Shown: one piece after another, positions 1,558 through 57,476 of the stretch | Position numbering within the stretch: the first letter of the stretch is position 1 | How the letters are laid out: every line of letters begins with the position of its first letter | Assembly (NCBI GenBank): GCA_963736875.1 | Contig: CAVTQH010000002.1 | Coordinates: forward strand, 199,927 to 263,926 | Reading direction: 5' to 3' | From: Candidatus Amesbacteria bacterium | GTDB lineage: Bacteria > Patescibacteriota > Microgenomatia > CAZETR01 > Amesbacteraceae | Length of the DNA: 64,000 nt | Notes under the pieces: model-generated | Databases searched by the model: none | The model's input: the letters and a program-made list of their open reading frames with translations, nothing else | Told to the model about the DNA's origin: nothing | Program-made: the position numbers and the translations under genes

Positions 1558-2542
1558 AATCTCTCATCGCACCATAGTCGTAGCTGCGGTTACGGTATTT
1601 CTCTTTTGGCTGGTATTTAAAATTTGGGATCTGCTTCTGCTTCTTTTTATTTCAGTCATCATCATGTCAGCCTTAAAACCCGCAGTGGATTACTTGGAAC
1701 GTGCCAAGCTCCCCCGGAGTGTGGCGATTATTCTTGTTTACGTTTTACTCTGGGTTTTTCTGGGTTTGGTATTTGCCGGCATTATCCCTCCCCTGGTGGA
1801 GCAAACCAGAAAATTGGTTAATCTTATCCCTTCAGCCTTAAACAATATCCGGTACTTGGATATTCATCAGCAGGAAATCACCGCCCAAATAATTTCCGGC
1901 ATCGGCAGCCTGCCCGAAAATGTTTTCCGTATCACTTCGGGGATATTCGGAAACGTGCTGAATGTTATCACTACAATAGTCATCTCCTTCTACCTGCTTC
2001 TGGAAAGAAAACATCTGGATCAGTATCTTGCTGATTTTTTAGGTACCAAAACCAGCCCCAGGATTTCCGGATTAATTACCGAAATAGAAAATAAATTAGG
2101 CAGCTGGGTTCGGGGTGAACTTATTCTGATGACCGCAATCGGGGTAACCACGTACATCGGTCTCAGGCTGCTGGGTCTGGAAACCGCTCTGCCTTTGGCC
2201 ATACTGGCCGGGATGCTGGAAGTAATTCCCAACGTCGGACCTACGGTCTCGGCCATTCCCGCCGTAATTATTGCCCTCCTTATTCATCCTCTGCTGGCTT
2301 TATCCACAGTGGCTTTATACATTCTTATTCAGGCTCTGGAAAATAATTTTTTAGTCCCCCAGGTGATGCGCAAAACCACCGGGGTCAATCCCCTGGTAAG
2401 TATTTTAGGCCTGATGATAGGGTTTCGTCTGGCAGGCATTGCCGGGGCAATTCTGGCTATCCCCACAATTTTGGTTATTCAGGCTATAGGACTCCACTTC
2501 TTTTCCCTGTCACACCTGGAAGAAATTTCCGATACCGACTGA
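1529..2542 (+). CDS. AI-2E family transporter (UPF0118/PerM-like permease)
   Basis: A 337-aa 8-TM protein with the typical AI-2E length and hydropathy layout. Its start overlaps the miaA stop. Confidence 0.55.
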   Translation: MGKIAPQKIEISHRTIVVAAVTVFLFWLVFKIWDLLLLLFISVIIMSALKPAVDYLERAKLPRSVAIILVYVLLWVFLGLVFAGIIPPLVEQTRKLVNLIPSALNNIRYLDIHQQEITAQIISGIGSLPENVFRITSGIFGNVLNVITTIVISFYLLLERKHLDQYLADFLGTKTSPRISGLITEIENKLGSWVRGELILMTAIGVTTYIGLRLLGLETALPLAILAGMLEVIPNVGPTVSAIPAVIIALLIHPLLALSTVALYILIQALENNFLVPQVMRKTTGVNPLVSILGLMIGFRLAGIAGAILAIPTILVIQAIGLHFFSLSHLEEISDTD

Positions 2543-2562
2543 AAAAGTGTAAAATACCCCTG

Positions 2563-2828
2563 CCTGGAGGTAGGCGGCTACTCCGACGTCACGTCGGAGA
2601 GGAAAGTCCAGACAACTGAAGGCAGGGTGCCCCGTGTAAGCGGGGACGCGCAAGCGCTAGTTTAGAGCAACAGTGACGAACCGAGGTCATGCTCGGGTGA
2701 AACGGGCAATCCTCCCCGTTGCAACCTCCGATTTGGCCGATAAAGACGGAAGCCTTCCCGAGGCCTAAAGCTTGAGGGCATCAGACAGATTGCCGCTAAA
2801 ACAGAATCTGGCTTACTCACCTCCAGGC
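2563..2828 (+). ncRNA. rnpB: RNase P RNA, bacterial type A, reduced size (~265 nt)
   Basis: Universal motifs are present: GGAAAGUCC (gagaggaaagtccagac), AAGGCAGGGUGCC, GCGCAAGCG and the 3' ACAGAAUCUGGCUUA. P1 is formed by cctggaggt (2563-2571) pairing with acctccagg (2819-2827). Confidence 0.7.
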
Positions 2829-2851
2829 AACTTTTAAGATATAATTGTTTC

Positions 2852-3013
2852 ATGATCAATCCCGAATTATTTACCAACAGGGCGGCATTTCAGGGTCTCG
2901 TCTCCCTGATTTTTGGTGTGCTCGTTCTGATGTTTCCCAAGCTCTTAAACTATCTGATCGCTTTCTATTTCATTTTCACCGGCCTGTCCGCGGTCTTACC
3001 CTATCTTCGCTGA
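2852..3013 (+). CDS. small hydrophobic membrane protein, 53 aa (MINPELFTNRAAFQGLVSLIFGVLVLMFPKLLNYLIAFYFIFTGLSAVLPYLR)
   Basis: An ATG-initiated ORF below the 60-aa track cutoff with two predicted TM helices. It overlaps a less plausible 80-aa track ORF read in another frame. Confidence 0.3.
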   Translation: MINPELFTNRAAFQGLVSLIFGVLVLMFPKLLNYLIAFYFIFTGLSAVLPYLR

Positions 3014-3014
3014 C

Positions 3015-3569
3015 ATGCCGTATCTGCTGGATTTACCGGAGACAGATTTCAAATCCCGGCCGATTCTGTTCATCGACCTGGAAATGACCGGATTGGATGT
3101 TGAAAAACACGAAATTGTGGAAATTGCCGCGCTCCTGGTTCATCAGCCGGACTTTCAGGTAGTCAATTCTTTTTATACCAAAGTTAAACCCGTCCATCTC
3201 CAAACCGGCGACCCCAGATCACTGAAAATAATAAACTTTTCCGAAAAAAGCTGGGCCGATGCAATACCGCTCCGCGAAGCCCTGCAGGAATTGGCGGACT
3301 TTGCTCCCAACTGCCTTCTGGCGGGTTGGTGTGTCCAGAATGAATGGGATTTTTTAAACTATAGCCTTCAGAAAGAGGGGATACCTTATTTTTATGACCA
3401 TCGTCTGATAGAAGTCTTCAGTCTGGCCTACACCCGTTTTTACCATGATCCGGACATGAAATTTATAAGTCTTTCCCGCGTTGCCCGTAAGTTGGGAATA
3501 TATATCGATCAGCACAAACCCGACTCAGATATCCGTGCGACCTACGAAATCTTCAGGAAATTAATTTAA
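3015..3569 (+). CDS. orn: DEDDh 3'-5' exonuclease, oligoribonuclease (Orn)-like
   Basis: ILFIDLEMTGLD (Exo I motif), a later W..QNEWDF motif and a C-terminal H...D...DI segment match Orn / the DnaQ-like fold. Confidence 0.55.
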   Translation: MPYLLDLPETDFKSRPILFIDLEMTGLDVEKHEIVEIAALLVHQPDFQVVNSFYTKVKPVHLQTGDPRSLKIINFSEKSWADAIPLREALQELADFAPNCLLAGWCVQNEWDFLNYSLQKEGIPYFYDHRLIEVFSLAYTRFYHDPDMKFISLSRVARKLGIYIDQHKPDSDIRATYEIFRKLI

Positions 3570-3587
3570 TTCGGATTTCTCCACCCA

Positions 3588-3640
3588 AAAACCCCGCCTC
3601 TTTTCAAAAAACAACTCTTGTGGCGGGGTCTTTTGGGAAA
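3588..3640. terminator. bidirectional rho-independent terminator
   Basis: aaaaaCCCCGCC...GGCGGGGtctttt: a 7-bp GC stem flanked by an A-run and a T-run. It lies between convergent genes (orn on +, zinc-ribbon gene on -). Confidence 0.45.
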
Positions 3641-3649
3641 ATGGAAAAT

Positions 3650-3793
3650 TTATTTGCCTCCGATTTTGTACATACCCGTTCCGCAGACCGGGCACTTCCC
3701 TTTTAAAGCCTTTTTTCCATTTTTCATTGTTACTGCCTGAGCATTGGGATCTTCTCTCTTGGATCGGCATTTTACGCAATACATTGATGCCAT
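3650..3793 (-). CDS. DUF5679-like zinc-ribbon protein, 47 aa (MASMYCVKCRSKREDPNAQAVTMKNGKKALKGKCPVCGTGMYKIGGK)
   Basis: CxxC...CPVCG zinc ribbon, 47 aa, ATG to TAA. It is missing from the ORF track (<60 aa); the track's 80-aa ORF 3561-3803 is a different frame. Confidence 0.6.
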   Translation of the reverse strand: MASMYCVKCRSKREDPNAQAVTMKNGKKALKGKCPVCGTGMYKIGGK

Positions 3794-3814
3794 TCTCACT
3801 CACCCCCTCTCATA

Positions 3815-4096
3815 TCAAAAATTTCCAGCTATTTTTTGTAACATGGAATTGACTTGCTGCCATCCGCCCCGGTTTAAATAGACGGCGAGGCTGAATTGTA
3901 AAAGCAAAGCCAGAATAGTCATGGCCAGGCTCTTTGTCAAGTCCGAAGTTAATAATTTAGTCGAAAGAGTAATTTCCGGTACATAATATTCTTCTTTAGG
4001 GGAAGCGGTTTCTTTAACTGCTGCAGGCTCAATTCTTTCAAGCCTTCTCCTCAATTTTGCCGCAATTTTTTCAGCTTTTGTCCTTCTTCCAGCCAT
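3815..4096 (-). CDS. hypothetical small protein, basic N-terminus with a C-terminal TM helix
   Basis: ORF only; no recognisable family. Confidence 0.25.
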   Translation of the reverse strand: MAGRRTKAEKIAAKLRRRLERIEPAAVKETASPKEEYYVPEITLSTKLLTSDLTKSLAMTILALLLQFSLAVYLNRGGWQQVNSMLQKIAGNF

Positions 4097-4488
4097 GCCG
4101 ATATGCTAACACACTTGGTCAAAACCGGCAATCAAGATATAATTTACCCCGATGACGGCAATTTGGGGATTGTTTTTAATTTTGCTTATTTGGTTACTGA
4201 TATTAAGTTATTTTGTCTTCCGTTGGCATCGTCATTCACGCCGTTCATCTTCACCGGTTTCTTCATCCGGATTCCGTTTCAGCCTTCTTCGCTTCAATCC
4301 TTTTTCCGATACCGGGGGAGAGCAGAGTTTTGTTCTCTCTTTACTTGATGGGGGGGGAAATGGCATACTACTTACCAGTTTGCATGGACGGGGGACCACC
4401 CGCTTTTATGCCAAGAGGGTAATTGCCGGTAAAACCGACCAGGAACTCTCAGCTGAAGAAAAGAAAGCTCTTTCGGAAGCACTCAATC

Positions 4489-5682
4489 ATGAATAAAAAA
4501 ATTTCCATCATTTTAACCGGCTTATTGCTGTTTGCCGTTTCCACAGGCACCTCTTACGCCTTTTTCCGGTTTATTCAAAAGCCCTCTTCTCCTCCCGTTT
4601 CCCCTGAATCTGTCATCCCCACGCCCTCTTCCCGGAAATCAAAAATTGATCCCTCACTTCCCAAAACCGAAGTTTGTCCGCTGAACGGCCAGTTGTTTAC
4701 CAAGCCTGAGAAAGACGTTTGGATTACCCGCAGGCCTTTGGGCATAATGGTTGAAAATTCAATTGATTCCCGTCCCCAATCCGGATTGGGGAGTGCCGAT
4801 ATTGTTTACGAAGCCGTGGCTGAGGGAGGAGTCACCAGATTCATGGGGATGTATTATTGCGACGCCGCTATGACGGACAAACTGATGGTTGCCCCGGTCA
4901 GATCAGCCCGGATATATTTTGTTAACCTCGTATCCGAGTATGACGCTCTCTACAACCATGTCGGCGGGGCGGGGAATTGTGACGATATAAATGTCGATCC
5001 CCGGGCCAAGGCGCTTTGCCTGATTAATACCGCGAAAATTAAAAATATGGATCAGATGGGTTATGCCGGTGATTTCAAAATTTGTCACCGCCTGACCAAT
5101 CGGTTGGACCATGACGTTGCTTATGAACACACCATGGCCTGCTTTGTTGACGAAATTTATAATAAAGCTGCCAAGCTCAATTGGACTAATGTTGATAGTA
5201 AGGGTGTTTCCTGGGACAAAAACTTTGTGTCATGGAAATTTAAGTCGGCCGATGAAAAAGCCGCCGGGTCGGAAGCCAAAACCATTTCCTATATTTTCTG
5301 GAGCGGGGACAGGCAATTTAATCAAAACTTTGATGTCAAATGGATGTACGATCCCGCGGCAAATACTTACAAAAGATACAATAACAACGAACTCACCATC
5401 GACCTCAATACCAATAGTCCTCTGAAATTTAACACTGTCATAGTTCAGTTTGCCAAAGAAACGTTGTTGGGGGATTTGGAAAAGCACCTTCTCTATGACG
5501 TAGTGGGCAAAGGCAAAGCCATTGTTTTTATGGACGGAGTGGCGGTCGATGCCGCCTGGACCAAGACCACCCGCACCAGCCGCACTCTGTTTTATGACGT
5601 CAAAGGCAAAGAGCTTAAACTAAATCCCGGTCCTGTCTGGATTTCCATCCTTCCGCTTGGAAATTCTGTAGAGTACAATTAG
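4489..5682 (+). CDS. DUF3048 (YerB-like) secreted/lipoprotein
   Basis: Signal peptide MNKKISIILTGLLLFAVSTG, then RRPLGIMVENSIDSRPQSGLGSADIVYEAVAEGGVTRFMGMYY, typical of DUF3048. The ATG at 4489 is preferred to the upstream alternative start at 4423. Confidence 0.55.
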   Translation: MNKKISIILTGLLLFAVSTGTSYAFFRFIQKPSSPPVSPESVIPTPSSRKSKIDPSLPKTEVCPLNGQLFTKPEKDVWITRRPLGIMVENSIDSRPQSGLGSADIVYEAVAEGGVTRFMGMYYCDAAMTDKLMVAPVRSARIYFVNLVSEYDALYNHVGGAGNCDDINVDPRAKALCLINTAKIKNMDQMGYAGDFKICHRLTNRLDHDVAYEHTMACFVDEIYNKAAKLNWTNVDSKGVSWDKNFVSWKFKSADEKAAGSEAKTISYIFWSGDRQFNQNFDVKWMYDPAANTYKRYNNNELTIDLNTNSPLKFNTVIVQFAKETLLGDLEKHLLYDVVGKGKAIVFMDGVAVDAAWTKTTRTSRTLFYDVKGKELKLNPGPVWISILPLGNSVEYN

Positions 5683-5757
5683 TCCTCGCGTACACTTCTT
5701 ACTCACTCCCTCTTGAATTTCTCCAAACACGTGATATCTTTGGGATTAGAAATATCC

Positions 5758-6336
5758 ATGCTTAAGGATTTGTTTATATCAAAGACCCGTGTCAAGATTC
5801 TGGAAAATTTTCTTTCAGACCCCACCCAAATGTATCACGTCCGCGACTTGGTCAGAAGAACCGGTGAGGAGATTAACGCCGTCCGCCGTGAATTGGCCCG
5901 GATGGAACAGTTGGGAATGGTTAAAAAAGAACCCCGGGGTAACCGCCTTTACTACTGGTTTCGTCAGGATTATGTTTTTTACTCCGATCTTTTAAGTTTG
6001 GTAGCCAAAACTACCGGTATCGGCGAAAACATTATTAAAAACCGCCATAAACTCGGGCGGGTAAATATCGCCATGCTCGGCAGCCGTTTTGTGCGTCATG
6101 AACCGAAAGATCAGCCGGACGAAGTTGATTTGCTGGTGGTAGGGGATATTGTTCTGCCGGAACTGGCGGCAATTGTCCGGGCGGAAGAAGTCAAACGCGG
6201 TCAGACCATAAACTACACCCCCATGACCGAGGAAGAACTGAAATTTCGCCGGACCCGGCGTGACCCCTTCCTGCTCGGGATTTTAACCAACGGCCGGGTG
6301 ATGATTATCGGCAGCGACCAAGACTTGGTTGGTTAA
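5758..6336 (+). CDS. winged-HTH regulator fused to a minimal nucleotidyltransferase (MNT-like) domain
   Basis: An N-terminal wHTH (KTRVKILENF...LARMEQLGMVKK) is followed by a GS-x(n)-DxD motif (GSRFVRHEPKDQPDEVDLLVVGD). The track ORF starts at 5713. Confidence 0.45.
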   Translation: MLKDLFISKTRVKILENFLSDPTQMYHVRDLVRRTGEEINAVRRELARMEQLGMVKKEPRGNRLYYWFRQDYVFYSDLLSLVAKTTGIGENIIKNRHKLGRVNIAMLGSRFVRHEPKDQPDEVDLLVVGDIVLPELAAIVRAEEVKRGQTINYTPMTEEELKFRRTRRDPFLLGILTNGRVMIIGSDQDLVG

Positions 6337-10127: not shown

Positions 10128-11696
10128 ATGAACTTATCTCCGCTCTGCTTGATCCAAAAGGGCCTGATCACCCCCGGTCAGGTAAACGATTTTCTTCACC
10201 CCCAGCATCCTCTGGAAATTACCCCTTCCCGGCTGGGTTTATCAAAACAGGCAATCACCCGGGCAAAAAAGCTCGTTGACCGGCACATTTCAGCCGGTCA
10301 CCCCATAGCTGTTTACGGAGATTATGATGTCGACGGAATTTGCGCCACCGCTATTGTTTGGGAAACCCTGTATCCGCTTTCCCGTCAGGTTTTTCCCTAT
10401 ATTCCTGATCGCCGTGCAGAAGGTTACGGTCTGACAAACGCCGGTATTGACCACTGTCTGGCCAAAGGTGCCAAACTCATAATTGTTCTGGACAGCGGTA
10501 TTGTTGCCGCAAAAGAGATTAAATACTGCCGGGATAAAGGTTGTGACATTTTAGTCATCGACCATCATCAGCCGGAAAGTACACCGCCCCGTCCCACGGC
10601 ACTTATCCATTCCACTGCCACATCTGCTGCCGGTCTGGCCTGGTTTTTTGTGAGGGAGTTTCAAAAAAATCCGGATTCGGAGTCGCTTTCACTGGTGGCA
10701 ATTTCCGTCATCTGTGACCTGGTGCCGCTTACCGGCGTCAACCGGAGTCTGGCAAAATTCGGATTGGAGCAGTTAAACATTACCACCCGCCCGGGGTTGT
10801 TGGCTCTTATTTCCCAATCGGGGATTACCCCGGGCCAAATCGGTCCTTATGAAGTCGGTTTTATCATCGGCCCGCGTTTAAATGCCATGGGGAGGTTAGA
10901 ACACGCCATAGACAGTTTAAGGCTTCTTTGCACCACCGACGCGGACAGGGCTCATAAGTTGGCCGCTACTTTGGGAGAAACCAATCGCCTGCGTCAGGAT
11001 ATGACTCAGAAATCATCCGACCACGCCATTTCGCTTTTTGTAAATCAAAACCTGCCCCGGCTTTTAATTGCCGCCGATCCTGATTATGACGAGGGGATTA
11101 TCGGTCTGGTTGCAGCCAGGCTGGTGGAAAAATATTTCCGTCCGGCGATTGCCGTCAGTGTCGGCCGGGAAAAAAGCAAAGCTTCGGCCAGATCCGTCCC
11201 CGGCTTCCACATCACCGGATTTTTACGGCAATTTACTTCTCTGTTTGAATCGGTCGGGGGTCACGAAATGGCTGCCGGTTTTACTTTTCCGACAGCCAAA
11301 TTGGATGAAGTTAAAACCCGTTTGCAAAAACAGGCCGGAAAAGCAATTACTCCTGAAATGCTTATTAAAAACCAGCGGATTGACGCCGTGGTGCCGGTGG
11401 ATGTTTTGGATTGGGATTTATGCACCGCCCTGGAACAATTTACCCCGTTTGGCATCGGCAATCCCAGGCCGGTTTTTAAATCCCATAAAATTCCCGTTGC
11501 AAATTTTAAAAGAGTCGGTCAGACGGCCAAACATCTCAAATTCAGTGCCGGGGGAATTGACGCAATTTTCTTTAACGCTCCGGACCGTGTAGAGCAAAAA
11601 TTATCCGCCGCCGACCTGGTTTATCATTTAAACCCCCATGTTTATCAGGGTATTGCCGGTATTCAATTGGTTATTAAAGATTTAAAATCTGCCTGA
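10128..11696 (+). CDS. recJ: single-stranded-DNA-specific exonuclease RecJ
   Basis: The DHH motif is IAVYGDYDVDGICATAIV...ILVIDHH, followed by DHHA1. Confidence 0.8.
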   Translation: MNLSPLCLIQKGLITPGQVNDFLHPQHPLEITPSRLGLSKQAITRAKKLVDRHISAGHPIAVYGDYDVDGICATAIVWETLYPLSRQVFPYIPDRRAEGYGLTNAGIDHCLAKGAKLIIVLDSGIVAAKEIKYCRDKGCDILVIDHHQPESTPPRPTALIHSTATSAAGLAWFFVREFQKNPDSESLSLVAISVICDLVPLTGVNRSLAKFGLEQLNITTRPGLLALISQSGITPGQIGPYEVGFIIGPRLNAMGRLEHAIDSLRLLCTTDADRAHKLAATLGETNRLRQDMTQKSSDHAISLFVNQNLPRLLIAADPDYDEGIIGLVAARLVEKYFRPAIAVSVGREKSKASARSVPGFHITGFLRQFTSLFESVGGHEMAAGFTFPTAKLDEVKTRLQKQAGKAITPEMLIKNQRIDAVVPVDVLDWDLCTALEQFTPFGIGNPRPVFKSHKIPVANFKRVGQTAKHLKFSAGGIDAIFFNAPDRVEQKLSAADLVYHLNPHVYQGIAGIQLVIKDLKSA

Positions 11697-11699
11697 ATT

Positions 11700-13178
11700 A
11701 TGGATCCGCACTTAACTGACCTTTTAGACAGCATCAAAAAAACTCCCCGGCCGGTGGATGCCGGGGTGGTTACGGCTGCCTGGCAATTTGCCAACGATGT
11801 TCACTTGGGCCAAAATCGGCTTACCGGGGAGCCTTATATTATCCATCCCACCCAAGTAGCCAAAACACTGGCGTTATGGAATCTTGACACCACCACCGTT
11901 GTGGCCGGTTTACTGCATGACACTATTGAGGATGCGCAAGTTACCAGAGACAGTCTGGCAGCAGGTTTTGGCGAAGAAGTGGCCTTAATCGTCGACGGGG
12001 TTTCCAAAATCACTTCGATTCGTTTAAAAGGCAGTTCCGAACAGGAATTTATCGAAAATTTCAGAAAAATGCTTTTGGTTATGGCCCGTGATCTCCGGGT
12101 AATTTTAGTCAAACTGGCTGACCGGTTGCACAATATGCAGACTCTGGGGGCCCTTCCCCCGGAAAAACAATTTGCCAATGCCCGGGAGACACTGGAAATT
12201 TATGCTCCCCTGGCCGAAAGGCTGGGTATGGGGGAAATCAAAGGCATTCTGGAAGACCTGTCATTCCCTTACGTTTATCCGCAGGAATTTATTGCTATGA
12301 AAAAACAACTCAAACCCTTGATTACCAAAGGGGAGGAGTATATTAAAAAAATCCAGCAGGAGCTTTTAACCCTGATTCTTCCGGCAATTCCCGGCGCGGT
12401 TATCAGTACCCGCCAGAAGCATCTCTACAGCCTTTTTCAAAAACTACAGCGTCCGGAAATTGCGGGTGATATCAGTCTGATTCACGACTTATTTGCAGCC
12501 AGGGTGATTTTAGAAACCCCTTCCGAGTGTTATGAAGCCCTGGGTTTGATTCACAGCCAATATCACCCGGTTCCGTACCTGGGTGTCTCCGATTTTATTG
12601 CCACCCCCAAACCCAACGGCTACCAGTCAATTCACACCAAAATTTTCGGTCCTGACGGTCACATCATAGAGCTGCAAATCAGGACCACCAGCATGCACGA
12701 ACAGGCGGAAATGGGTATCGCCGCCCACTGGTTTTACAACGAGACCAAAACTTCCGGGGTTTCGGATCAGAAGCTGGAAAAGGGGATTGCCGGACCTGCA
12801 TCCAAACTGGATTGGGTCAAACAACTGGCTTCGCTTCAGGAAGAGATCAAAGACAACAGTGAATACTTGAAAACCCTCAAATTTGACGCCTTAAAGCACC
12901 GCTTGCTGGTCTTTTCCCCCAAGGGGGATGTCTATGACCTGCCGGCAGGAGCCACCCCGGTGGATTTTGCCTACGCGGTTCATACCGGCATGGGTTCCCA
13001 GGCCAAAGGAGCCAAAGTTAACGACAAAATGGTCCAGTTGGATTACCGTCTGAACAACGGAGACGTGGTGGAGATTTTAATTGACCGCAAAAGGAAAACT
13101 CCCAGTCCCCGCTGGCTGGATTTTGCGGTCACCGCCGCCGCCCGCCGGGAAATAAGTAAAAGCATAATATCGCCTTAA
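11700..13178 (+). CDS. rel: short RelA/SpoT-family (p)ppGpp synthetase/hydrolase (HD + synthetase + TGS; no ACT)
   Basis: HD motif (IIHPTQVA...HDTIED), a synthetase domain and TGS (GDVYDLPAGATPVDFAYAVHTGMG). The 492 aa end just after TGS. Confidence 0.75.
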   Translation: MDPHLTDLLDSIKKTPRPVDAGVVTAAWQFANDVHLGQNRLTGEPYIIHPTQVAKTLALWNLDTTTVVAGLLHDTIEDAQVTRDSLAAGFGEEVALIVDGVSKITSIRLKGSSEQEFIENFRKMLLVMARDLRVILVKLADRLHNMQTLGALPPEKQFANARETLEIYAPLAERLGMGEIKGILEDLSFPYVYPQEFIAMKKQLKPLITKGEEYIKKIQQELLTLILPAIPGAVISTRQKHLYSLFQKLQRPEIAGDISLIHDLFAARVILETPSECYEALGLIHSQYHPVPYLGVSDFIATPKPNGYQSIHTKIFGPDGHIIELQIRTTSMHEQAEMGIAAHWFYNETKTSGVSDQKLEKGIAGPASKLDWVKQLASLQEEIKDNSEYLKTLKFDALKHRLLVFSPKGDVYDLPAGATPVDFAYAVHTGMGSQAKGAKVNDKMVQLDYRLNNGDVVEILIDRKRKTPSPRWLDFAVTAAARREISKSIISP

Positions 13179-49488: not shown

Positions 49489-49629
49489 GGGTCAAGTTTA
49501 TCACCGCCCATCTCCCCTTCCTGCAGCAGATAGAAAAATCTCAGGAAGTCAATCTCAAGATCAATAATCTAATCTAAAACTTTCTATATGGTTTATATAC
49601 TCGGAAGGAAACTTAAATTTATTAGCAGC

Positions 49630-50009
49630 TTATATTATTCTTTCCAAATAGTCTGACTGATCAAACTTACCTGCGGTTAGATTGTCATTATCGATATAAA
49701 CCCATGATTTAATATAAATACCTTCAAACCTTACATTTTCTTCTACTCTATTGTAAGTCTTTGGGATTTTATTATAACCTTCACTCTTATCTAATGCGTT
49801 CAAAGCAACATCATTAATATCAAATAATAGTCCATATACCTTTGGAACACGAATTTGTAGTATCAATAGCTATATTAGCCTTACAGCGGTTATTTTAAAA
49901 AAAATTCCCAACCTTCTAGTATAGCTACTCCTAATAACCCGAAGTTATCTACACATCTAACCTTCATTTGATTTAAATCCATGTTTGAACCATAAGCAAA
50001 GTATTTCAT
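49630..50009 (-). pseudogene. AIG2/GGACT (gamma-glutamyl cyclotransferase-like) family gene, frameshifted at an A8/T8 homopolymer (~49888-49895)
   Basis: An N-terminal piece MKYFAYGSNMDLNQMKVRC... (start ~50009) and a C-terminal piece ...VYGLLFDINDVALNALDKSEGYNKIPKTYNRVEEN... (49630-49866) lie in different frames. Confidence 0.45.
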
Positions 50010-50096
50010 TTTCTGCCTACAAAATAACCCAGACGAAGTAGGAGGTAAAGGTATTTGTAGCTTTCATACTTGCTGGGCGTGAAACAATTGAAGAAG

Positions 50097-51818
50097 TTAT
50101 GTTAGTAGATTTTTTAGATTCATAACATACTGATCTTCAAATGAATAACTATACTTTTTAGCCAAACTCCAGAATGAATCTTTAATATCTTGCTCATTGC
50201 GAATCAATTTTCTAGCTTCTGATAAGGAGGTAATAATATTACCCCTTGCCCTTGATGCCACCCTACTCAAATTAGTTGGTATCGTTGTTCTTAGTTTCCA
50301 GCTTTTAACGTCCCATATTAAATTAATACATGAATCAAGGTGGGTTTCATATTCACCAAACAGATCCTCGACCGCAAATCCATCAGGTAGAGTAATTATA
50401 TAAAGGTTACTTTTGGAATTAGGTATTAAATATTTTTTAAATCCATTGCTTAATTGAGGATCACCAACGATATATTTACTATACACATCTTTTCCTTTAT
50501 CGCTATCAACAATAAAGTATGCCTTCTTTTGTACAAGATCGGGTATATTTAATAAAACATCTATTGTTCTAGTTATTTGAGCTACACCTTCAAAACAGTT
50601 GGTAATTTTAATACCAACCTGTTCGTAAACATCCTTTGTTTCAGCTCTTTTATCTTCAATAAATGTTAGTAATTTGTCCTGAGAGGTATAGAAATATACA
50701 TAAAAGTTAGAATCTCCCATTAATTTCCCAATTTCAACTACTTCCTCCTTTGTCCATAATTTCATCTTTTTGTTTTTAACAACCACATGCTCTTTTAATA
50801 GACACCACTCTATGTTATCACCCCCTAAATTACTTGAGGCTAATATTATTGGGGAGTGTGTAGAAACGACCATTTGGATGTTCTTCAGCCAAGCTTGTGA
50901 ATTAAGTTCTTGAGAGAACTTGACCATTAAATCACCATGGAGAAAGGATTCTGGTTCTTCCAACAACCATATTGGGTGATATTCTCCTCTGTGAAGTGAC
51001 CTATCACTATCAAGTAAATAATGTGTTTGATATAAGATGGTTGATTGAGCTCCCGTTCCATGTGAGGTAAGCTCAATTTCTGGAAGTGTTTGTTGCCCTT
51101 TAAAACTTATATCAGAGATTTCAACAATTTCTTTAATATTTTTAGGAAGGTCAAGAGCTGCTTCACTTCCAGGCCACATAGTTTGCAGGCTTTTAGTTAA
51201 TGAGGATGAAAGGTACGATCTGGCTTGTCTACGAAATTCCTCCCACTTTTTTTGTAACTCATTAATACCTATAGATAAATTTGGGTTTCTACCCCAATTC
51301 GCTAATAACCTTTGTCTTAATTTTTCTTGCGCATTCTTAAGTAGATCTCTACCTTCTTGGGGGTGAATGTATGTCACCCTTACGCTCATTAACAACTTTT
51401 TAACATCTGGGTCAATATCGTCGAATGAATCATAAACATAACCTAAAAAGGTATATGAAAACGAAACTTTCCTTGATGATGGTAAAAATGTGATTATTTT
51501 CTTAATATCCGCCTTCTTATTCTTGAACAACCTTATCAGGCGATTTCTTAAAACATTACTAGTTAATTCTTCTAAATTAAATGTTATTGAGATCTCAGCA
51601 TGGTTATACCCTGCCTTTTTTGCTAGGTAGGTGGTTCTGTTTAGAAAAGTTTCATCTTGATATAACGAATCGTTAAAAAAGAAGTTTAAAGCATTTAAAA
51701 TCGCCGTTTTCCCTGCATTATTTATCCCTATTAAATAAGTTCCTTGGGATAAATTTATTTGAGTCTTTGACCGAAAGCACTTAAAGTTTTCTATTTCAAG
51801 CGAATTAATTAAACTCAT
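50097..51818 (-). CDS. OLD-family-like ABC-type ATPase with C-terminal TOPRIM/DUF4435-like domain
   Basis: Walker A GINNAGKTAILNAL, signature-like SHGTGAQS, Walker B IWLLEEPESFLH, H-loop VVSTHSP. The C-terminus has FEG...(Glu) and FIVDSDKGKD (DxD) as in TOPRIM. Confidence 0.55.
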   Translation of the reverse strand: MSLINSLEIENFKCFRSKTQINLSQGTYLIGINNAGKTAILNALNFFFNDSLYQDETFLNRTTYLAKKAGYNHAEISITFNLEELTSNVLRNRLIRLFKNKKADIKKIITFLPSSRKVSFSYTFLGYVYDSFDDIDPDVKKLLMSVRVTYIHPQEGRDLLKNAQEKLRQRLLANWGRNPNLSIGINELQKKWEEFRRQARSYLSSSLTKSLQTMWPGSEAALDLPKNIKEIVEISDISFKGQQTLPEIELTSHGTGAQSTILYQTHYLLDSDRSLHRGEYHPIWLLEEPESFLHGDLMVKFSQELNSQAWLKNIQMVVSTHSPIILASSNLGGDNIEWCLLKEHVVVKNKKMKLWTKEEVVEIGKLMGDSNFYVYFYTSQDKLLTFIEDKRAETKDVYEQVGIKITNCFEGVAQITRTIDVLLNIPDLVQKKAYFIVDSDKGKDVYSKYIVGDPQLSNGFKKYLIPNSKSNLYIITLPDGFAVEDLFGEYETHLDSCINLIWDVKSWKLRTTIPTNLSRVASRARGNIITSLSEARKLIRNEQDIKDSFWSLAKKYSYSFEDQYVMNLKNLLT

Positions 51819-51870
51819 ATGTTTTTTAAATAGCGGTTATGGCCTTAAAATAGCCTTAAATTTCTTAATG

Positions 51871-52500
51871 TCAAGCTATTCTAGTACCAGTATTTACTCC
51901 GCCGTGGTGGGAGCAGGTACCAGAGCGATGTTGACTAAAACTATACGTACCATCACCACACTTTGCAGTTGCCCCCACCGGAGGAGAATTGTAATAAGTA
52001 GGTGACTGTACTTTGTTTCCGTCTACATTTATATAGTAATCTGGGCTAGATTGAGTTTGGGGAGCTATTGTTGGAACTGGTTTAAATGTTGGTCTTGGAG
52101 TCGGCTTAAGAGTGGGGGTCAATGTTGGTGTTGGAGTTGGAGCTACAGTTAGGACCGGGGAAATAATTTCACTGGCTGGACTCAAGATTTCTACTCCCCC
52201 AATTTGTCCCTCAACTTTCGGCGACTCTGTTTTTATTTGGATGTTTGATCGTGGAACAGTGGAAACGTCTACTGGGATTTTTGGACTTGACCAAAACGAT
52301 GTTGAAATCAACGCCAATAAACACAAAGCCGCGATCGACCCAATTTTTACTTTATGCTTCCAGTTATTTCTGAAAATGACATAAGCAAAGAAAAAAGGCC
52401 AGAAAATGATTGCCAAAAGTAGTTTCCACCAAGTTTTATACCAGGGTCGTGGGGCAGACACGTCCGATTGGACGGTCATTAGCCTGGATGTTAGTTCCAA
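51871..52500 (-). CDS. membrane protein with PT-rich linker and C-terminal DUF3761-like Cys domain
   Basis: TM; (PT)n linker; YINVDGNKV...ATAKCGDGTYSFSQHRSGTCSHHGGV. Confidence 0.4.
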   Translation of the reverse strand: MELTSRLMTVQSDVSAPRPWYKTWWKLLLAIIFWPFFFAYVIFRNNWKHKVKIGSIAALCLLALISTSFWSSPKIPVDVSTVPRSNIQIKTESPKVEGQIGGVEILSPASEIISPVLTVAPTPTPTLTPTLKPTPRPTFKPVPTIAPQTQSSPDYYINVDGNKVQSPTYYNSPPVGATAKCGDGTYSFSQHRSGTCSHHGGVNTGTRIA

Positions 52501-52554
52501 GATGACCTATAGTCAAGTTTTACCGGGCGTGATCACATTATTTTAGACGACTTT

Positions 52555-53010
52555 TCAAGGTTGTGTTTCATACATAGCAACCTCACATTTTTTAGCAGTA
52601 AGACTTGTGCCACCTCTTGAATATGGTAAATCATGATCGAAATGTAGGTTCTGATTTGACTTACATATTACACATTTTCCTTGATCTCTTTTCCAAACCT
52701 CCTTTTTTACTTCCGATGGGATTAGTCTAGTATGAGAAAGTTGTACTTTCTGAATATCTCCCGAGATAGATTGGTTACCTGATAGTTTTAAAATAAAACG
52801 GAATACATTTCTATTACTATTGTTTTTCACTGTGTAATCAATAAGTTCGAAGTATCCCTTTGATGACCAAACTCCATTCATTATTTTTTCATAAACTTTC
52901 ACAATCTCAGGGTTGGCATCTTTTTCCTTGTATCCTTTTACTGCACGAATAAATAATCCATTCTGTGTTAATTTCCCTGAAGGTAATATTTCTGGCTGAT
53001 CGTCTAATTT
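52555..53010 (-). CDS. HNH endonuclease (start codon uncertain)
   Basis: CVICKSNQNLHFDHDLPYSRGG is an HNH motif. The frame is open back to ~53010 with no ATG. The upstream 64-aa ORF 53032-53226 is in the same frame, separated by TAA and TGA. Confidence 0.55.
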   Translation of the reverse strand, partial: KLDDQPEILPSGKLTQNGLFIRAVKGYKEKDANPEIVKVYEKIMNGVWSSKGYFELIDYTVKNNSNRNVFRFILKLSGNQSISGDIQKVQLSHTRLIPSEVKKEVWKRDQGKCVICKSNQNLHFDHDLPYSRGGTSLTAKKCEVAMYETQP

Positions 53011-53428
53011 TGGATTATGTCATATGCTTTTTTAGATATATCGTGTCCTTCGTATTCTATCGGTAATTCCATCGGAATATATTTTATCTTTATATGGGGC
53101 ATTTGATCTTTGGGACATCAAAATTAAAGAGTAACGAGGATTTAGTCGGTAATTCATTCCTCGTTGAAGAGTTTGAACATTTTCTAAATCACACATTTCC
53201 CTGTAAGAAAATATTTGATCAAGCACAGGTCAATTCCTTTTTAAACATAATTTGTATTTATTGGCTATTTAATTTACACTCTCCCCAAAAGAAAGCAATT
53301 GATTTGGGTCGAAAATATTATTTCCTCTTATTGATTCGTCTATTTCTCTTATTTTTTTATAACCTAAGAATTTAATAGCCTCGTTTAATTTTAAACACGG
53401 ATTGGAAAACGTTGGCCTTTTTAGCTCA

Positions 53429-54382
53429 TCAAACACTTTCCTTTTTCTTTCTTCGGAAGAGACAATAAAAAGTGGGTAACTTGAATTTGGGTTTCCTGAC
53501 TCTTAAATCTGATAACCTCAATATTCCTGAGTAAATCGAAGTCGTATGTTCAATTTCGAAGGCTGATTTAATTGAATATGGTCCATATTTCCATACAACA
53601 TCAATATTTTTAATTGTCGGAGGTACATCAAGTGATTCATGAAATTCTGATAATACGTGTTCTTTAAATCTATTACCTTGAAAGGACTTTCCTTGGTCGT
53701 TAGAGGGAACCCATATGTCAAATTTTGCCAATTCACCTAGCCTTATTAACCTCCATTGTATCTCAACATGTTCAGTAGTCGATTGTTCAATGTGTTCGTC
53801 AAGTTCTGTTATTGCCTTTGTTTGTTGTGGTATTTCTCTGATTTTTTCTCCCTTTTCTATTGTCTTTAGTGTACCTAATAAATCCCCATATCTGCTTAAG
53901 AAATATTTAGTTGCATCTTCATTTATCATTGTTAATCCTTGTGGAGAATAATTCTCCTTATATCCAAATAGTGGATTAATTTTTGATAGCGGTACCGAGA
54001 CTCTCTCTTCGTTAAGAATAAAATATATTAATTCCCAAGTTTCGCCCTCTGGAGTTTCATGCCAAAAATACTTAGCTAATTCTTTGCTTCTGACTTTAGC
54101 CGCTATCTCGCCAACAAATCTTATGTAACCATTATTATAAATAAGTACTACGTCTCCAGACTCCATTTTTTCCCATCGAGTTTCATTTAAAGGTCCTGGA
54201 ACAGCTCCCCAGACAATAAAGGGTAAGTTATGGTAGATATTTTCTAGATTACTGATCTCTTTTTGTGGAAGATAATTTCTTATTTCGTTAAGATTTCTTT
54301 TGTTTTGAATTGTATCCTCAAAATGACGTTGAGCCTCGTAGTTACCACCAGCAACTACAATAAATACTTTTCTAATCTTCAT
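53429..54382 (-). CDS. EVE/PUA-like domain fused to a restriction-endonuclease-like (PD-(D/E)XK-like) C-terminal domain
   Basis: The N-terminus reads PFIVWGAVPG...MESGDVVLIYNNGYIRFVGEIAAKV, EVE-like. The C-terminus reads ...IDVVWKYGP...FEIEHTTS.... A 2-nt gap separates it from the MazG-like gene. Confidence 0.35.
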   Translation of the reverse strand: MKIRKVFIVVAGGNYEAQRHFEDTIQNKRNLNEIRNYLPQKEISNLENIYHNLPFIVWGAVPGPLNETRWEKMESGDVVLIYNNGYIRFVGEIAAKVRSKELAKYFWHETPEGETWELIYFILNEERVSVPLSKINPLFGYKENYSPQGLTMINEDATKYFLSRYGDLLGTLKTIEKGEKIREIPQQTKAITELDEHIEQSTTEHVEIQWRLIRLGELAKFDIWVPSNDQGKSFQGNRFKEHVLSEFHESLDVPPTIKNIDVVWKYGPYSIKSAFEIEHTTSIYSGILRLSDLRVRKPKFKLPTFYCLFRRKKKESV

Positions 54383-54384
54383 AT

Positions 54385-54855
54385 TTAAAGCTGATTATAC
54401 TTTGTGTGTTTACCCTTTGTCTTTTCAATAGGGTACCTTAGATTGTTCTTTGCTATTTTCTTATCAAGAGCTGCCAATATATCAATATTTAAATCATTAC
54501 TCATAAGTAATACCCAATACAACACGTCAGCTAATTCTTCGCCTATTTCATTTTTATGATTCTTAACATGTTCTTCGATCTCTTCTTTGTTCTTCCATTG
54601 GAAGTGTTCCATTACTTCTGCTGCTTCTAGAATCAGAGATAGAGATGCATCTTTAGGATTATGAAACTGCTTCCAATCCCTAGCATTCCGGAAATTGATA
54701 ATTCTCTGAGTTAAACTTTTTATTGTTTTCACTTTTAGCCTGATTTTACTCCTTTTTTCCCTTTTTTCGCGGATTTGATAGGATATAGATAGTGAAATTA
54801 ATAAGCGTACGGAAATTGGGATTTTATAAAAGCAAGTTCTTTGTCTTTTTCGCAT
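54385..54855 (-). CDS. MazG-like nucleotide pyrophosphohydrolase (all-alpha NTP-PPase, YpjD-like)
   Basis: RDWKQFHNPKDASLSLILEAAEVMEHFQWK...IGEELADVLYWVLLMSNDLNIDILAAL. The real start is probably ~54760. Confidence 0.55.
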   Translation of the reverse strand: MRKRQRTCFYKIPISVRLLISLSISYQIREKREKRSKIRLKVKTIKSLTQRIINFRNARDWKQFHNPKDASLSLILEAAEVMEHFQWKNKEEIEEHVKNHKNEIGEELADVLYWVLLMSNDLNIDILAALDKKIAKNNLRYPIEKTKGKHTKYNQL

Positions 54856-55436
54856 CTGCTTCTATTTTGGTAGTGCTGTTGTTTGTATTAAATAATTTAT
54901 TTATTTCCCTGGCTGGAACCTTACTTTTCATAGTACTTTTTAAAAAATACAAACCCTATGAAAAAGGTTTGTTGGGTGAAACGGACATCAGCGATGAATT
55001 GAGGAAACTTCCACCTGAATACCATTTCTTTTCCGATATAGAAACTGACCGGAGTAAGGCCAATATTGATAAAGTGCTTATCGGACCAACCGGGGTATGG
55101 GTAATAGAAGTTAAAAATATGCAGGGTAAGTTTACTTTTGATGGCCAGAAACTGTTAAAAAATGGTTATCCGATGCCAAAAGATATCCTTAGCCAAACCT
55201 GGAAGGAATCCTATACCATCCGCGATTTAATCAAAGAAAGATTAAATTTTGGTGTTACTGTCCAGCCAGTACTGGTTTTTTCCAGTTCCAAGGCATACTT
55301 TAAGTTTGGAATGAATAAGGTGAAGGGGATTTATATTATCGGGAAGAAATGGTTGAACCAGTTAGTGAATGAAAAAACAACCCAACCTCTAGACCCCCAA
55401 ACCATCGATAAGATTTCAGCTATCTTCAAATTTTAA
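54792..55436 (+). CDS. NERD-domain (nuclease-related domain) membrane protein
   Basis: Two N-terminal TMs, then GLLGETDISDELRKLPPEYHFFSDIE...IDKVLIGPTGVWVIEVKN. Confidence 0.55.
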   Translation: MKLISVRKLGFYKSKFFVFFASASILVVLLFVLNNLFISLAGTLLFIVLFKKYKPYEKGLLGETDISDELRKLPPEYHFFSDIETDRSKANIDKVLIGPTGVWVIEVKNMQGKFTFDGQKLLKNGYPMPKDILSQTWKESYTIRDLIKERLNFGVTVQPVLVFSSSKAYFKFGMNKVKGIYIIGKKWLNQLVNEKTTQPLDPQTIDKISAIFKF

Positions 55437-56135: not shown

Positions 56136-57476
56136 TTAATTTACGGGGATGGTGGAAGGAATGTAATAGACATTGCCCGTCAGCTGTCCGTTTAAGACGT
56201 TGGCCGATGAATCGGTGGTGTCGGAATCAAAATGATAAAGCATCATGGTATCGGCATCGGGGGTAAACGGCAGTTTGGAAGGAGTGAAATTTCCGGTGTA
56301 TCTGGCGGTATCGGAAACCCTCACTTCATCGATGACTCCCTGGAAGAAATCATAAAACGGCAGGTTTTTATCAAACAACCCGGCTCCGATGTGCAGACTC
56401 CGGCCGTTATTGCAGACAATCATGCCTACGTTGTAGGAATTTAATTTGACTCCGTTTTCGTAAATATGCAGGTTGCCGTTTTGTAAAACCCCGGCGACAT
56501 GTTTCCAGGAATTAAACTCTCCCGGGGTAACTGTGATGTAATTGCAGATGTTCCAGGGGTTCCAGTTACAGTTACCGGAATAAACCACCGTTTGGTTGCA
56601 GCCGTTGTTCGAACTTTGGACATCAAAGTAATAAATATACGAAACATTTGCTCCGTTGGGTATGGCATCCATTGATAGCCGGTAAGTATTATCGACAATG
56701 CGGTATCCGTAGCCGGCTTTTGCCGGGGCAATCGGCTTTATCCAGGCCTCAACCGTAACATTATCAGTCGGCAGATTCATCTTGGAAGAATACGGCACTT
56801 CCATATACTGCAGCACCGGGGTGTAAGACGGCGGGTTAAGGCCGGCAACTTTGCCTCCGAAAACCGCGGCTTCGCCCCAGGGGTAAGCCGGGGTGGGAGT
56901 GGGTGCCGGAGTGGAAGTGGGTGCCGGAGTCGGGGTGGGAACAATTAAACAGTCTTCTGATTTCATTAAAGGCCGGCACCAATAGCAGTCAGGGGAAATA
57001 ATATGGGTACCGGGACAGCCGGGATCATTGACTCCGAATTTATTGTATCTGGTTTCGGCATCAAGATTTTCGGTCTTGGATTTGGGGTTATAGCACAGAA
57101 CCGCCGAATTACCGCACCTGGTAATATGGATTTCTTTAAGTTCCGGCGTGGAAAGATATATTTCTTCAAATTTCGGGTCCTTGATCAGTTCGTGGATGCA
57201 GTCGGGAATATCCGTCAGAGGAACACCTGCGTTTAATTCATTCCGGCAGTCGGGATTCACATCCCAGGGGAGTTTTTTATGACTGCTGTAATACCCGATA
57301 GCGGAATTAATCACATCCTTGATTACGACTTTGGAACTGGCATCCGCGGCCTTGGAAATCTGTTCGGCGGGATTAACGGCAAAAAGAACCGTGGACAAAA
57401 TGACTGTCAGAATACCCATGACCATTAAAAGCTCAATCAGGGTAAAACCGGTGGCAATTTTATACCTCGTAACCAC
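56136..57476 (-). CDS. type IV pilin/pseudopilin-like protein with large lectin/LamG-like C-terminal domain
   Basis: A class III signal with prepilin cleavage/methylation motif G|FTLIELLMV, a (TP)n linker, and a Cys-rich jelly-roll-like C-terminus. Confidence 0.6.
   Translation of the reverse strand: MVTRYKIATGFTLIELLMVMGILTVILSTVLFAVNPAEQISKAADASSKVVIKDVINSAIGYYSSHKKLPWDVNPDCRNELNAGVPLTDIPDCIHELIKDPKFEEIYLSTPELKEIHITRCGNSAVLCYNPKSKTENLDAETRYNKFGVNDPGCPGTHIISPDCYWCRPLMKSEDCLIVPTPTPAPTSTPAPTPTPAYPWGEAAVFGGKVAGLNPPSYTPVLQYMEVPYSSKMNLPTDNVTVEAWIKPIAPAKAGYGYRIVDNTYRLSMDAIPNGANVSYIYYFDVQSSNNGCNQTVVYSGNCNWNPWNICNYITVTPGEFNSWKHVAGVLQNGNLHIYENGVKLNSYNVGMIVCNNGRSLHIGAGLFDKNLPFYDFFQGVIDEVRVSDTARYTGNFTPSKLPFTPDADTMMLYHFDSDTTDSSANVLNGQLTGNVYYIPSTIPVN

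Follow-up and report, generated by a model that had tools for sequence, protein, structure and literature searches.

An OLD/GajA-like ATPase with a TOPRIM domain of the Eco2 lineage: a likely single-gene defence nuclease in a Candidatus Amesbacteria bacterium

Introduction

At positions 50097-51818, on the reverse strand, of a 64,000-nucleotide stretch of Candidatus Amesbacteria DNA (the whole of which is hereafter called the window) lies a gene for a 573-amino-acid (aa) protein that is best described as a fusion of an OLD/GajA-like ATPase with a TOPRIM domain of the Eco2 lineage. Its N-terminal half groups with the OLD/GajA/AriA defence ATPases and not with SMC/RecF, and the TOPRIM that forms its C-terminal domain belongs to the lineage of type I-C retrons (Eco2/Ec67), not to the classical OLD kind. 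We consider it likely that the gene represents a single-gene, horizontally acquired, ATP-gated OLD-like ATPase-TOPRIM defence nuclease.

ATPase-TOPRIM proteins, including OLD, Gabija, PARIS and the retron effectors, form a major and actively studied anti-phage group. Their classes are at present defined by gene context, and their targets are under revision from DNA to tRNA. The general idea of an OLD-family nuclease is already known for this gene, because annotation pipelines label some of its relatives as OLD-family or ATP-dependent nucleases; what is new is which lineage the nuclease domain belongs to, and that standard models do not see it.

Results

A Complete and Conserved Gene

50097..51818, reverse strand: complete ATPase-TOPRIM gene, 573 aa, with an ATG start and its stop codon at 50097-50099 (open reading frame list; end-to-end alignment with homologues of ~570 aa)

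The open reading frame (ORF) runs uninterrupted for 573 codons at a guanine-cytosine (GC) content of 33%, and it is not due to chance, because stop codons are frequent in DNA so rich in AT. The protein has 208 database relatives (E down to 0), and among the 120 matches listed the relatives are near full-length, almost all ~570 aa long and 42-66% identical, so that this is a real and conserved gene, and probably a functional one. One exact copy of the protein is also on record, and the AlphaFold2 (AF2) model of its full length has a mean predicted local distance difference test (pLDDT) score of 89.6. Motif coordinates throughout were checked on the translation, and the invariance of residues was judged in a family alignment of 62 sequences. 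An earlier note on this DNA had listed a complete ABC-ATPase motif set together with a C-terminal Glu and DxD; all of these were found, and all are invariant in that alignment.

An N-Terminal ATPase of the OLD/GajA/AriA Type

50814..51818, reverse strand: ABC ATPase domain, residues 1-335, AAA_15/AAA_21, of OLD/GajA/AriA type (Pfam, PADLOC, PDB sequence matches, hhalign)
51705..51728, reverse strand: Walker A or P-loop GINNAGKT, residues 31-38, with K37 (translation; G31, N33, N34, G36 and K37 invariant)
51069..51353, reverse strand: helical insertion in the ATPase, ~residues 156-250 (AF2 helices 156-173 and 179-214, lower pLDDT of 64-85)
51042..51065, reverse strand: ABC signature SHGTGAQS, residues 252-259 (translation; G254, G256 and Q258 invariant)
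50937..50969, reverse strand: Walker B and D-loop WLLEEPESFLH, residues 284-294, with the OLD-type D-loop His H294 (W284, L285, E288, P289, E290, F292 and H294 invariant)
50850..50864, reverse strand: H-loop STHSP, residues 319-323, with H321 (translation; H321 and S322 invariant)

Together with an invariant Q-loop, HPQEG (residues 152-156), these motifs make up the full set expected of an OLD-family ATPase, from Walker A through the signature, Walker B and D-loop His to the H-loop. WLLEEPESFLH aligns with 'EEPEMYLH' of Thermus scotoductus OLD (Ts OLD) and with 'EEPEISLH' of GajA, and the shared form 'EEPExxLH', with its OLD-type His, is common to the new family and the class 1 OLDs (P2 Old, Ts OLD, Vibrio cholerae OLD (Vc OLD) and Escherichia coli YbjD). 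Between the two ATPase lobes the AF2 model places, at lower confidence, long helices (156-173 and 179-214), as OLD and GajA have; by comparison with published structures (PMC7049728), this insertion is a candidate dimerisation or coiled-coil domain such as those of Ts OLD and GajA.

Profile searches agree with the motifs. Of the hidden Markov models (HMMs) that the earlier note had proposed as a check, the two for the ATPase match (Pfam AAA_15, 8.6e-23; AAA_21, 1.5e-10), and the best PADLOC models of the ATPase half are Old (1.6e-24), GajA (1.1e-22), AriA (7e-21) and ATPase-Toprim_I-B (6.7e-18). The top PDB sequence matches are Ts OLD (6P74) and GajA, and hhalign aligns the family profile with residues 5-394 of P2 Old (89% probability, E 2e-6); this full-length alignment covers the ATPase alone and ends one turn short of the true P2 TOPRIM strand. 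When the full-length model was compared by Foldseek, GajA ranked first (1e-20, ~640 aligned columns), followed by the OLD protein of retron Eco8 (1e-15) and Ts OLD (7e-15), while the heads of SMC, Rad50 and RecN ranked lower (1e-11 and weaker).

These scores and this structural ranking are the reason for grouping the ATPase with the defence ATPases, and they bear directly on the reading of the protein as a housekeeping, SMC/RecF/Rad50-like ATPase of genome maintenance, or as one with a CheY-like C-terminal domain that regulates and does not catalyse. We judge that reading very improbable. Pfam SMC_N reaches 35.5 bits against a gathering cut-off of 40, the NCBIfam models of SMC, RecF and Rad50 reach 8-25 bits against cut-offs from 172 to ~1087, and OLD/GajA stand ahead of SMC by nine orders of magnitude in the Foldseek comparison. 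A near-universal, vertical distribution would be expected of such a protein, and the gene instead occurs in ~30 of 185,579 species, here in an island of foreign composition. For the CheY-like variant, the C-terminal domains gave no Response_reg match at E<=10, their acidic residues are invariant, and they share sequence homology with a catalytically proven TOPRIM. Both the housekeeping and the receiver-domain readings were accordingly rejected, and the earlier note's own worry, that the ATPase might fall among the SMC/RecF proteins, did not materialise.

A C-Terminal TOPRIM of the Eco2/Ec67 Lineage

50670..50813, reverse strand: linker module, residues 336-383, a beta-hairpin and two helices (AF2 model; W338, G368, D369, N371, F372, Y375 and F376 invariant)
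50316..50669, reverse strand: TOPRIM core, residues 384-501, comprising beta1-E388/D389, G411, beta3-D438xD440, beta4-LP, A-V-E484-D-L-F and E489
50652..50657, reverse strand: E388-D389, the predicted metal-binding Glu at the end of beta1 and an invariant Asp at +1 (translation; motif-level match to Eco2 E374 and P2 Old E398)
50499..50507, reverse strand: D438-S-D440, the TOPRIM DxD at the end of beta3 (invariant; aligned by hhalign to Eco2 D460/D462)
50352..50369, reverse strand: E484-D-L-F-G-E489, with the 'xEDLF' shared with Eco2 (SME515DLF) (E484 and E489 invariant; aligned by hhalign to Eco2 'MEDLF')
50100..50315, reverse strand: C-terminal helical subdomain, residues 502-573, with invariant K546-x-x-F549-W550 (AF2 helices 515-572; invariant residues)

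In the model of the isolated domain (pLDDT 93.9) the elements follow in the order beta1-E388-D389, helix, beta2, G411, helix, beta3-D438-x-D440, beta4, L-P and A-V-E484-D-L-F. The Glu after beta1 and the DxD after beta3 thus stand where a TOPRIM fold has them, as supported by the model topology, the invariance of the residues and homology to Eco2. Just before the TOPRIM the linker carries a family-specific invariant motif, MGDxNFxxYF (367-376), for which no counterpart was identified.

The nearest relative of this domain, by HMM, by profile-profile comparison and by structure, is the reverse transcriptase-TOPRIM protein of retron Eco2/Ec67 (PDB 9I2F, 9S1F, 9LM3). The PADLOC model RT-Toprim_I-C matches 10 of 30 C-terminal domains from the family (best 1.5e-7), and a second model of the same type matches 7 of the 30 (best 3.6e-7); the matches cover profile positions ~391-492, which is the TOPRIM part, and once extend up to 559 of 568. 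With hhalign, the family profile aligns to the Eco2 C-terminal region at E 1.6e-5, and to a profile of six Eco2-like sequences trimmed to the TOPRIM region at E 4e-6 (87% probability). The six proteins came from a homologue search with the Eco2 C-terminal region and give a small yet usable profile, while the corresponding search with the P2 Old C-terminal region returned five proteins, unusable as a profile; the Eco2 (Ec67) sequence was identical to PDB chain 9I2F_C, residues 1-586. In the hhalign register G411 falls on Eco2 G428, D438/D440 on D460/D462, the L-P after beta4 on T-P, and E484-D-L-F on E515-D-L-F. Foldseek with the isolated domain gave a single notable match, the activated retron Eco2 9S1F (E 1.6e-3, probability 0.94), with DnaG weakly next. 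By motif comparison and the published catalytic sets (PMC7049728, PMC12916289), the predicted ligands correspond as follows.

E388: Eco2 E374, P2 Old E398
D438/D440: Eco2 D460/D462, P2 Old D453/D455
E484: Eco2 E515, P2 Old E543

D460 and D462 are among the Eco2 residues whose mutation abolishes RNA cleavage (PMC12916289), and E484 is a candidate second-metal ligand by positional analogy to P2 Old E543 (PMC7049728). The two families also share the patterns G...hhhhDxDxG and LP/TP...xEDLF and, in the terminal helical region, a KxxF that is likewise invariant in the Eco2-like proteins (Eco2 K546/F549, 'YGKHIF'); the role of K546 in the new family may resemble that of K562 in the class 2 protein Bp OLD (PMC7049728). 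Mestre et al. had set the I-C TOPRIM apart as a lineage of its own, presumably a new one, within its superfamily (PMC7736814), and the Eco2-like proteins recovered here resemble the C-terminal domain of the new family in having no Pfam domain over the TOPRIM region. The two differ in what the TOPRIM is joined to: in Eco2 it is fused to a reverse transcriptase and caged by multicopy single-stranded DNA, whereas here the N-terminal half is an ABC ATPase and no reverse transcriptase domain is present. They differ as well in the first motif (EGKTD in Eco2, with E374 and D378, against EDKxxxT) and in the spacing from the Glu to the DxD (86 aa in Eco2, 50 aa in the new family).

One of the proteins met in this work, P0188 of Psychromonas antarctica (280 aa), shows 45% identity with the TOPRIM region of Eco2, in an alignment that covers 98% of the query, and may be either a standalone Eco2-type TOPRIM without a reverse transcriptase or a truncated gene call.

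A Domain Missed by Standard Models, and the Case for Class 1

All matches to OLD, GajA and AriA profiles end near residues 330-362 of the protein. Beyond that point the isolated C-terminal domain (~240 aa) matched nothing in Pfam or NCBIfam, whether at E<=10 or at E<=1, and a Pfam search (E<=10) with the C-terminal domains of 30 family members gave scattered chance matches and no TOPRIM, Toprim_OLD (PF20469), DUF4435 (PF14491) or RloB; nor did any PADLOC model of Old, GajA or AriB match those 30 domains. The C-terminal family profile found no match at E<=10 among all PDB sequences. Searched against 1.84 billion representative proteins, it returned 67 matches, fragments included, all from its own family, and no sequences bridging to other TOPRIM families. 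The earlier note had expected its reading to be checked with TOPRIM and DUF4435 HMMs, and by that test the reading would fall, because neither matches the window protein or its 30 relatives at E<=10.

It might be argued that the protein is nevertheless an ordinary class 1 OLD nuclease, one that, like Ts OLD and Vc OLD, attacks DNA by nicking or degradation and whose TOPRIM has diverged too far for the HMMs. Both are standalone genes of similar length (573 aa against 528-586 aa) with a beta1 Glu and a beta3 DxD in a C-terminal TOPRIM; Old is the best PADLOC model of the ATPase, the best PDB sequence match, Ts OLD, is a class 1 protein, and the motif order E...DxD...xE...K fits the OLD scheme (PMC7049728). 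In the annotations of JGI and NCBI pipelines, moreover, some members appear under the name 'ATP-dependent endonuclease of OLD family' or that of 'ATP-dependent nuclease'. We nonetheless regard this reading as doubtful. Against class 1 OLDs the C-terminal profile gives insignificant hhalign scores (E 0.43 for P2 Old, 0.15 for YbjD), to be compared with 4e-6 for the Eco2-like TOPRIMs, and the Toprim_OLD, OLD, GajA and AriB models all miss the domain. In OLD proteins the ligands of metal B are an acidic residue four positions after the beta1 Glu and an S/T/D-x-E following beta4, and the active site has a basic K/R (PMC7049728); the new family lacks the first of these, at +4, and has an invariant D389 at +1 instead, and reads 'A-V-E484' in place of S/T/D-x-E, so that the position two before E484 is neither acidic nor hydroxylated. 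Its invariant Lys, K546, belongs to a helical subdomain at the C terminus that is absent from Ts OLD (PMC7049728), and the founding member of the class, P2 OLD, is itself now reported as a tRNase (PMC12445682).

Of the earlier note's class-1 OLD-type architecture, then, the OLD-type ATPase and, at the C terminus, a TOPRIM-like domain with its Glu and DxD have stood, while the TOPRIM has proved nearest to Eco2 and not to the class 1 OLDs. The protein is OLD-like in its presumed working and class 1 by the contextual definition, yet it is not a plain class 1 member, and we do not file it as one because the OLD TOPRIM profiles fail to recognise it and one canonical metal ligand is absent.

Gene Context, Distribution and Two-Gene Alternatives

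51847..51874, reverse strand: promoter-like site TTGACA-16-TATTTT (consensus scan, 10/12 matches; across the DUF3761 stop codon, 29 bp upstream of the start codon)
49550..55400, no strand: low-GC island with the gene, other defence-type genes and decayed genes (composition profiles, gene content)
49630-49866: GGACT-family gene fragment, 78 aa, downstream of the ATPase-TOPRIM gene
51871-52500, reverse strand: DUF3761 protein gene with a hydrophobic N-terminal segment, upstream of the ATPase-TOPRIM gene and on the same strand
~52539-53226, reverse strand: HNH endonuclease pseudogene, upstream of the DUF3761 gene (39% identical to an intact 235-aa HNH protein)
53429-54382, reverse strand: 317-aa ORF with a lysine-rich tail and a weak type II restriction-enzyme match (PADLOC REase_II, 1.7e-5)
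54385-54855, reverse strand: MazG-like pyrophosphohydrolase ORF, 156 aa
54792-55436, forward strand: NERD-domain protein gene

The gene lies in an island of ~5.9 kb with 34% GC, against 47% in the rest of the window, in which the GGACT fragment, the ATPase-TOPRIM gene, the DUF3761 gene, the HNH pseudogene, the 317-aa ORF, the MazG-like gene and the NERD gene follow one another, and which looks like a partly decayed defence island. No flanking direct repeats were found at its borders, and the 64-kb window has no tRNA genes anywhere, so none at the borders either. Between the start of the ATPase-TOPRIM gene and the upstream gene there is a gap of 52 bp. Promoter-like sites are rarer in the region than in shuffled controls, and the TTGACA-16-TATTTT site is a weak hint.

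About 30 loci with full-length relatives, gathered from species-representative genomes and exact look-ups, were compared by clustering their neighbouring ORFs. Their contexts vary: a neighbour family is shared by three of the 30 loci at most, and those three are related Verrucomicrobia. No helicase adjoins the gene in the window or recurs beside it across the 30 loci, nor does a reverse transcriptase or a second nuclease recur among the neighbours. The gene therefore stands alone, without a dedicated partner, as class 1 OLDs do and as the earlier note had supposed of a gene with no helicase at its side. Neighbours at the other loci are often restriction-modification, AIPR/Abi, toxin-antitoxin or RhuM genes. 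Full-length copies number ~30 among 185,579 species representatives and occur sporadically, in Patescibacteria, Margulisiibacteriota, Bacteroidota, Verrucomicrobiota, Planctomycetota, Proteobacteria, Spirochaetes and one archaeal metagenome-assembled genome (MAG); the members of this rare family include one from Leptospira.

This context also sets the gene apart from Gabija. GajA, a class 2 OLD, is the best structural match over the full length, and in both proteins a helical region after the TOPRIM contributes a conserved Lys (by analogy with Bp OLD K562; PMC7049728). No UvrD-like GajB helicase gene lies downstream, however, either in the window, where the 78-aa GGACT fragment takes that place, or in any of the 30 loci, and GajA profiles do not align to the protein beyond ~residue 360; the earlier note had likewise set a Gabija-like system aside.

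An HNH gene upstream on the same strand raises the question of a two-gene system resembling Septu or retron I-A, in which a PtuA ATPase is paired with a PtuB HNH protein. PtuA belongs to a related ATPase clade, and its models match the ATPase half weakly; in one Saccharibacteria MAG, moreover, an intact HNH homologue (PF01844, 7e-7) ends 48 bp before the ATPase homologue. Measured against that intact 235-aa homologue (L011:3407-4114), the copy in the window is interrupted by two in-frame stops (near 53034/53022) and by a frameshift, near 52595, inside the HNH motif, whose end is thereby cut off; for these reasons it is a pseudogene. The earlier note had placed an HNH gene at about 52555-53010; a gene is indeed there, but it spans ~52539-53226 and is disrupted. 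The DUF3761 gene lies between it and the ATPase, its position is unrelated to that of the Septu partner, HNH genes are adjacent in 2 of the 30 loci, and the ATPase already has a nuclease domain of its own, whereas PtuA has none fused to it. Since the HNH gene is a pseudogene and so seldom adjacent, the doubt that the earlier note itself had voiced over such a pairing was justified; we rejected it, and its likelihood is in our view next to nil.

Very improbable, too, is a merged PARIS system (an AriA-AriB fusion, class 4 OLD) or a class 3 OLD associated with a retron. The logic of PARIS is the same, with an AAA_15/21 ATPase as sensor and a TOPRIM as effector, and, by analogy, the effector of the new family may be a tRNase as that of PARIS is. 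The AriA and ATPase-Toprim_I-B models do match the ATPase half, merged ariAB genes exist (PMC11464382), the TOPRIM is nearest to a retron effector domain, and the 'EDxxL' motif of type I-B1 effectors (PMC7736814) resembles E388-D389. Against this, none of the 30 C-terminal domains matches DUF4435 or AriB at E<=10, and AriB has a DxE (D88/E90; PMC11464382) where the new family has an invariant DxD. A class 3 or type I-B system would include an adjacent reverse transcriptase and an msr/msd non-coding RNA. No neighbour family, reverse transcriptases included, recurs in the 30 loci, and none of the latter appears in the Pfam listings of five loci; in the window, the one locus searched with Rfam, no RNA family lies near the gene, which has just 52 bp upstream of it. 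Both forms of the idea were rejected on the absence of a DUF4435/AriB match and of a recurrent reverse transcriptase.

Some further observations concern the neighbours. A 55-aa ORF (53269-53436, reverse strand) follows the 317-aa ORF in another frame with an 8-bp overlap, and the gene at 53429-54382 may for that reason also be frameshifted. The MazG-like ORF and the divergent NERD gene overlap by 64 bp, and the former has ~35-60 extra N-terminal residues relative to a 122-aa homologue in the Saccharibacteria MAG (contig CAZLKS010000034.1, locus L011), so its true start is probably further downstream. HNH and MazG-like genes are common to the window and this one MAG alone, where positions 1161-5886, laid out like the island in the window, hold the MazG-like gene, a 618-aa helicase, the intact HNH gene and the ATPase-TOPRIM homologue (54% identical). 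The helicase is of the Schlafen-group-3/DUF2075 type (PF09848, 4.9e-97) and has no counterpart in the window. At another locus (L008, ENA contig ctg45437c), paralogous genes for a class II aminoacyl-tRNA synthetase (tRNA-synt_2; 4664-5953 and 10756-12198) flank the ATPase-TOPRIM homologue and a few small genes, an arrangement that may reflect insertion beside a duplicated housekeeping gene.

Elsewhere in the window, at 2563-2827 on the forward strand, lies an RNase P RNA for which the archaeal model RF00373 gives the top score, 88.8 bits (E 3e-23), over the full length of the model and above the gathering threshold. The proteins of the window nevertheless look bacterial: the one encoded at 56136-57476, for instance, has an N-terminus, 'GFTLIELLMV', like that of a type IV pilin, and Patescibacteria supply most relatives of the ATPase. 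The RNA may be an unusual RNase P RNA of a candidate-phyla bacterium.

Discussion

The protein is probably a rare anti-phage protein, because an intact gene in a foreign, low-GC island here combines an OLD-like ATPase with a nuclease domain nearest to the tRNA-cutting nuclease of Eco2. Beside the observed domain identities, conserved residues, standalone context and sporadic distribution, it is the relatives of the protein from which we infer a role in defence, gating by ATP, oligomerisation and a substrate. Kinship with defence ATPases and TOPRIMs, neighbours typical of defence islands, the patchy distribution and the foreign GC content speak indirectly for the role in defence. The N-terminal ABC ATPase, with its inserted and probably dimerising helical domain, would most likely serve as sensor and switch. 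Probably oligomeric through that insertion, it would control a two-metal TOPRIM nuclease whose predicted ligands are E388, D438, D440 and E484, with K546 supplied by the helical subdomain. By analogy with P2 OLD, PARIS and Gabija, a resting oligomer would keep the TOPRIM site closed until a phage-derived cue, together with the binding or hydrolysis of ATP, opened it; once open, the nuclease would cleave nucleic acid and so halt the infection, probably at the expense of the cell.

What would be cut may be considered from the same relatives. The TOPRIM of Eco2 makes nicks in the acceptor stems of tRNA, besides degrading RNA (PMC12916289), P2 OLD is now reported to be a tRNase that ATP activates and that is kept inactive as a tetramer (PMC12445682; bioRxiv 10.64898/2026.07.10.737580), and AriB of PARIS cuts tRNA (PMC11464382), while GajA and Vc OLD nick DNA (PMC10568477, PMC12392090). 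For this reason we slightly favour tRNA or RNA, to which we would give a little under an even chance, over DNA, attacked by nicking or degradation, which keeps a substantial though lesser one. More tentatively still, the family may form an unrecognised class of OLD-like immune proteins, in which an ABC ATPase gates an I-C-lineage TOPRIM to give a retron-free, single-polypeptide cutter of tRNA or RNA with a modified metal site (ED for ExxxD).

Several observations weigh against the assignment and the function proposed here. The significant hhalign segment with Eco2 comprises ~75-81 columns and leaves out beta1, so that the link of E388-D389 to Eco2 and P2 Old is one of motif level; with the untrimmed Eco2-like alignment the register is shifted and the probability 13%. 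The window protein's own C-terminal domain lies below the reach of the RT-Toprim_I-C models that detect a third of its 30 relatives. At the active site, the position four residues after the beta1 Glu, occupied by D378 in Eco2, E402 in P2 Old and D381 in Ts OLD, has no conserved acidic residue (it is A392 in the window protein), and an invariant acidic residue, E489, takes the place of the R/K of class 1 OLDs; on account of these two differences the chemistry may depart from that of OLD and Eco2. In INPHARED phages, PLSDB plasmids and IMG/VR the family was not found, the matches being at the level of the ATPase. Because the island contains decayed genes, namely the HNH pseudogene and the GGACT fragment, the ATPase-TOPRIM locus may also be eroding, yet its ORF retains every family-invariant residue.

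The practical gain from this finding is modest, since the architecture and its likely logic are already familiar. Tools built on the standard TOPRIM and DUF4435 models nevertheless cannot describe the whole protein, because those models miss its C-terminal domain. Eco2-type TOPRIMs have so far been known only as effectors of type I-C retrons, and here one is joined to an OLD/GajA-like ATPase. If active, the protein would add a distinct branch to the OLD-like superfamily, offer evidence that sensor and effector modules are shuffled between retrons and OLD-type proteins, and provide a one-protein system in which to study how an ABC ATPase gates an Eco2-type nuclease. If the proposal is true, TOPRIM effector modules have been swapped between retrons and OLD-type ATPases. 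The family occurs notably in the reduced genomes of Patescibacteria, whose known defence repertoire this protein, if active, would enlarge.

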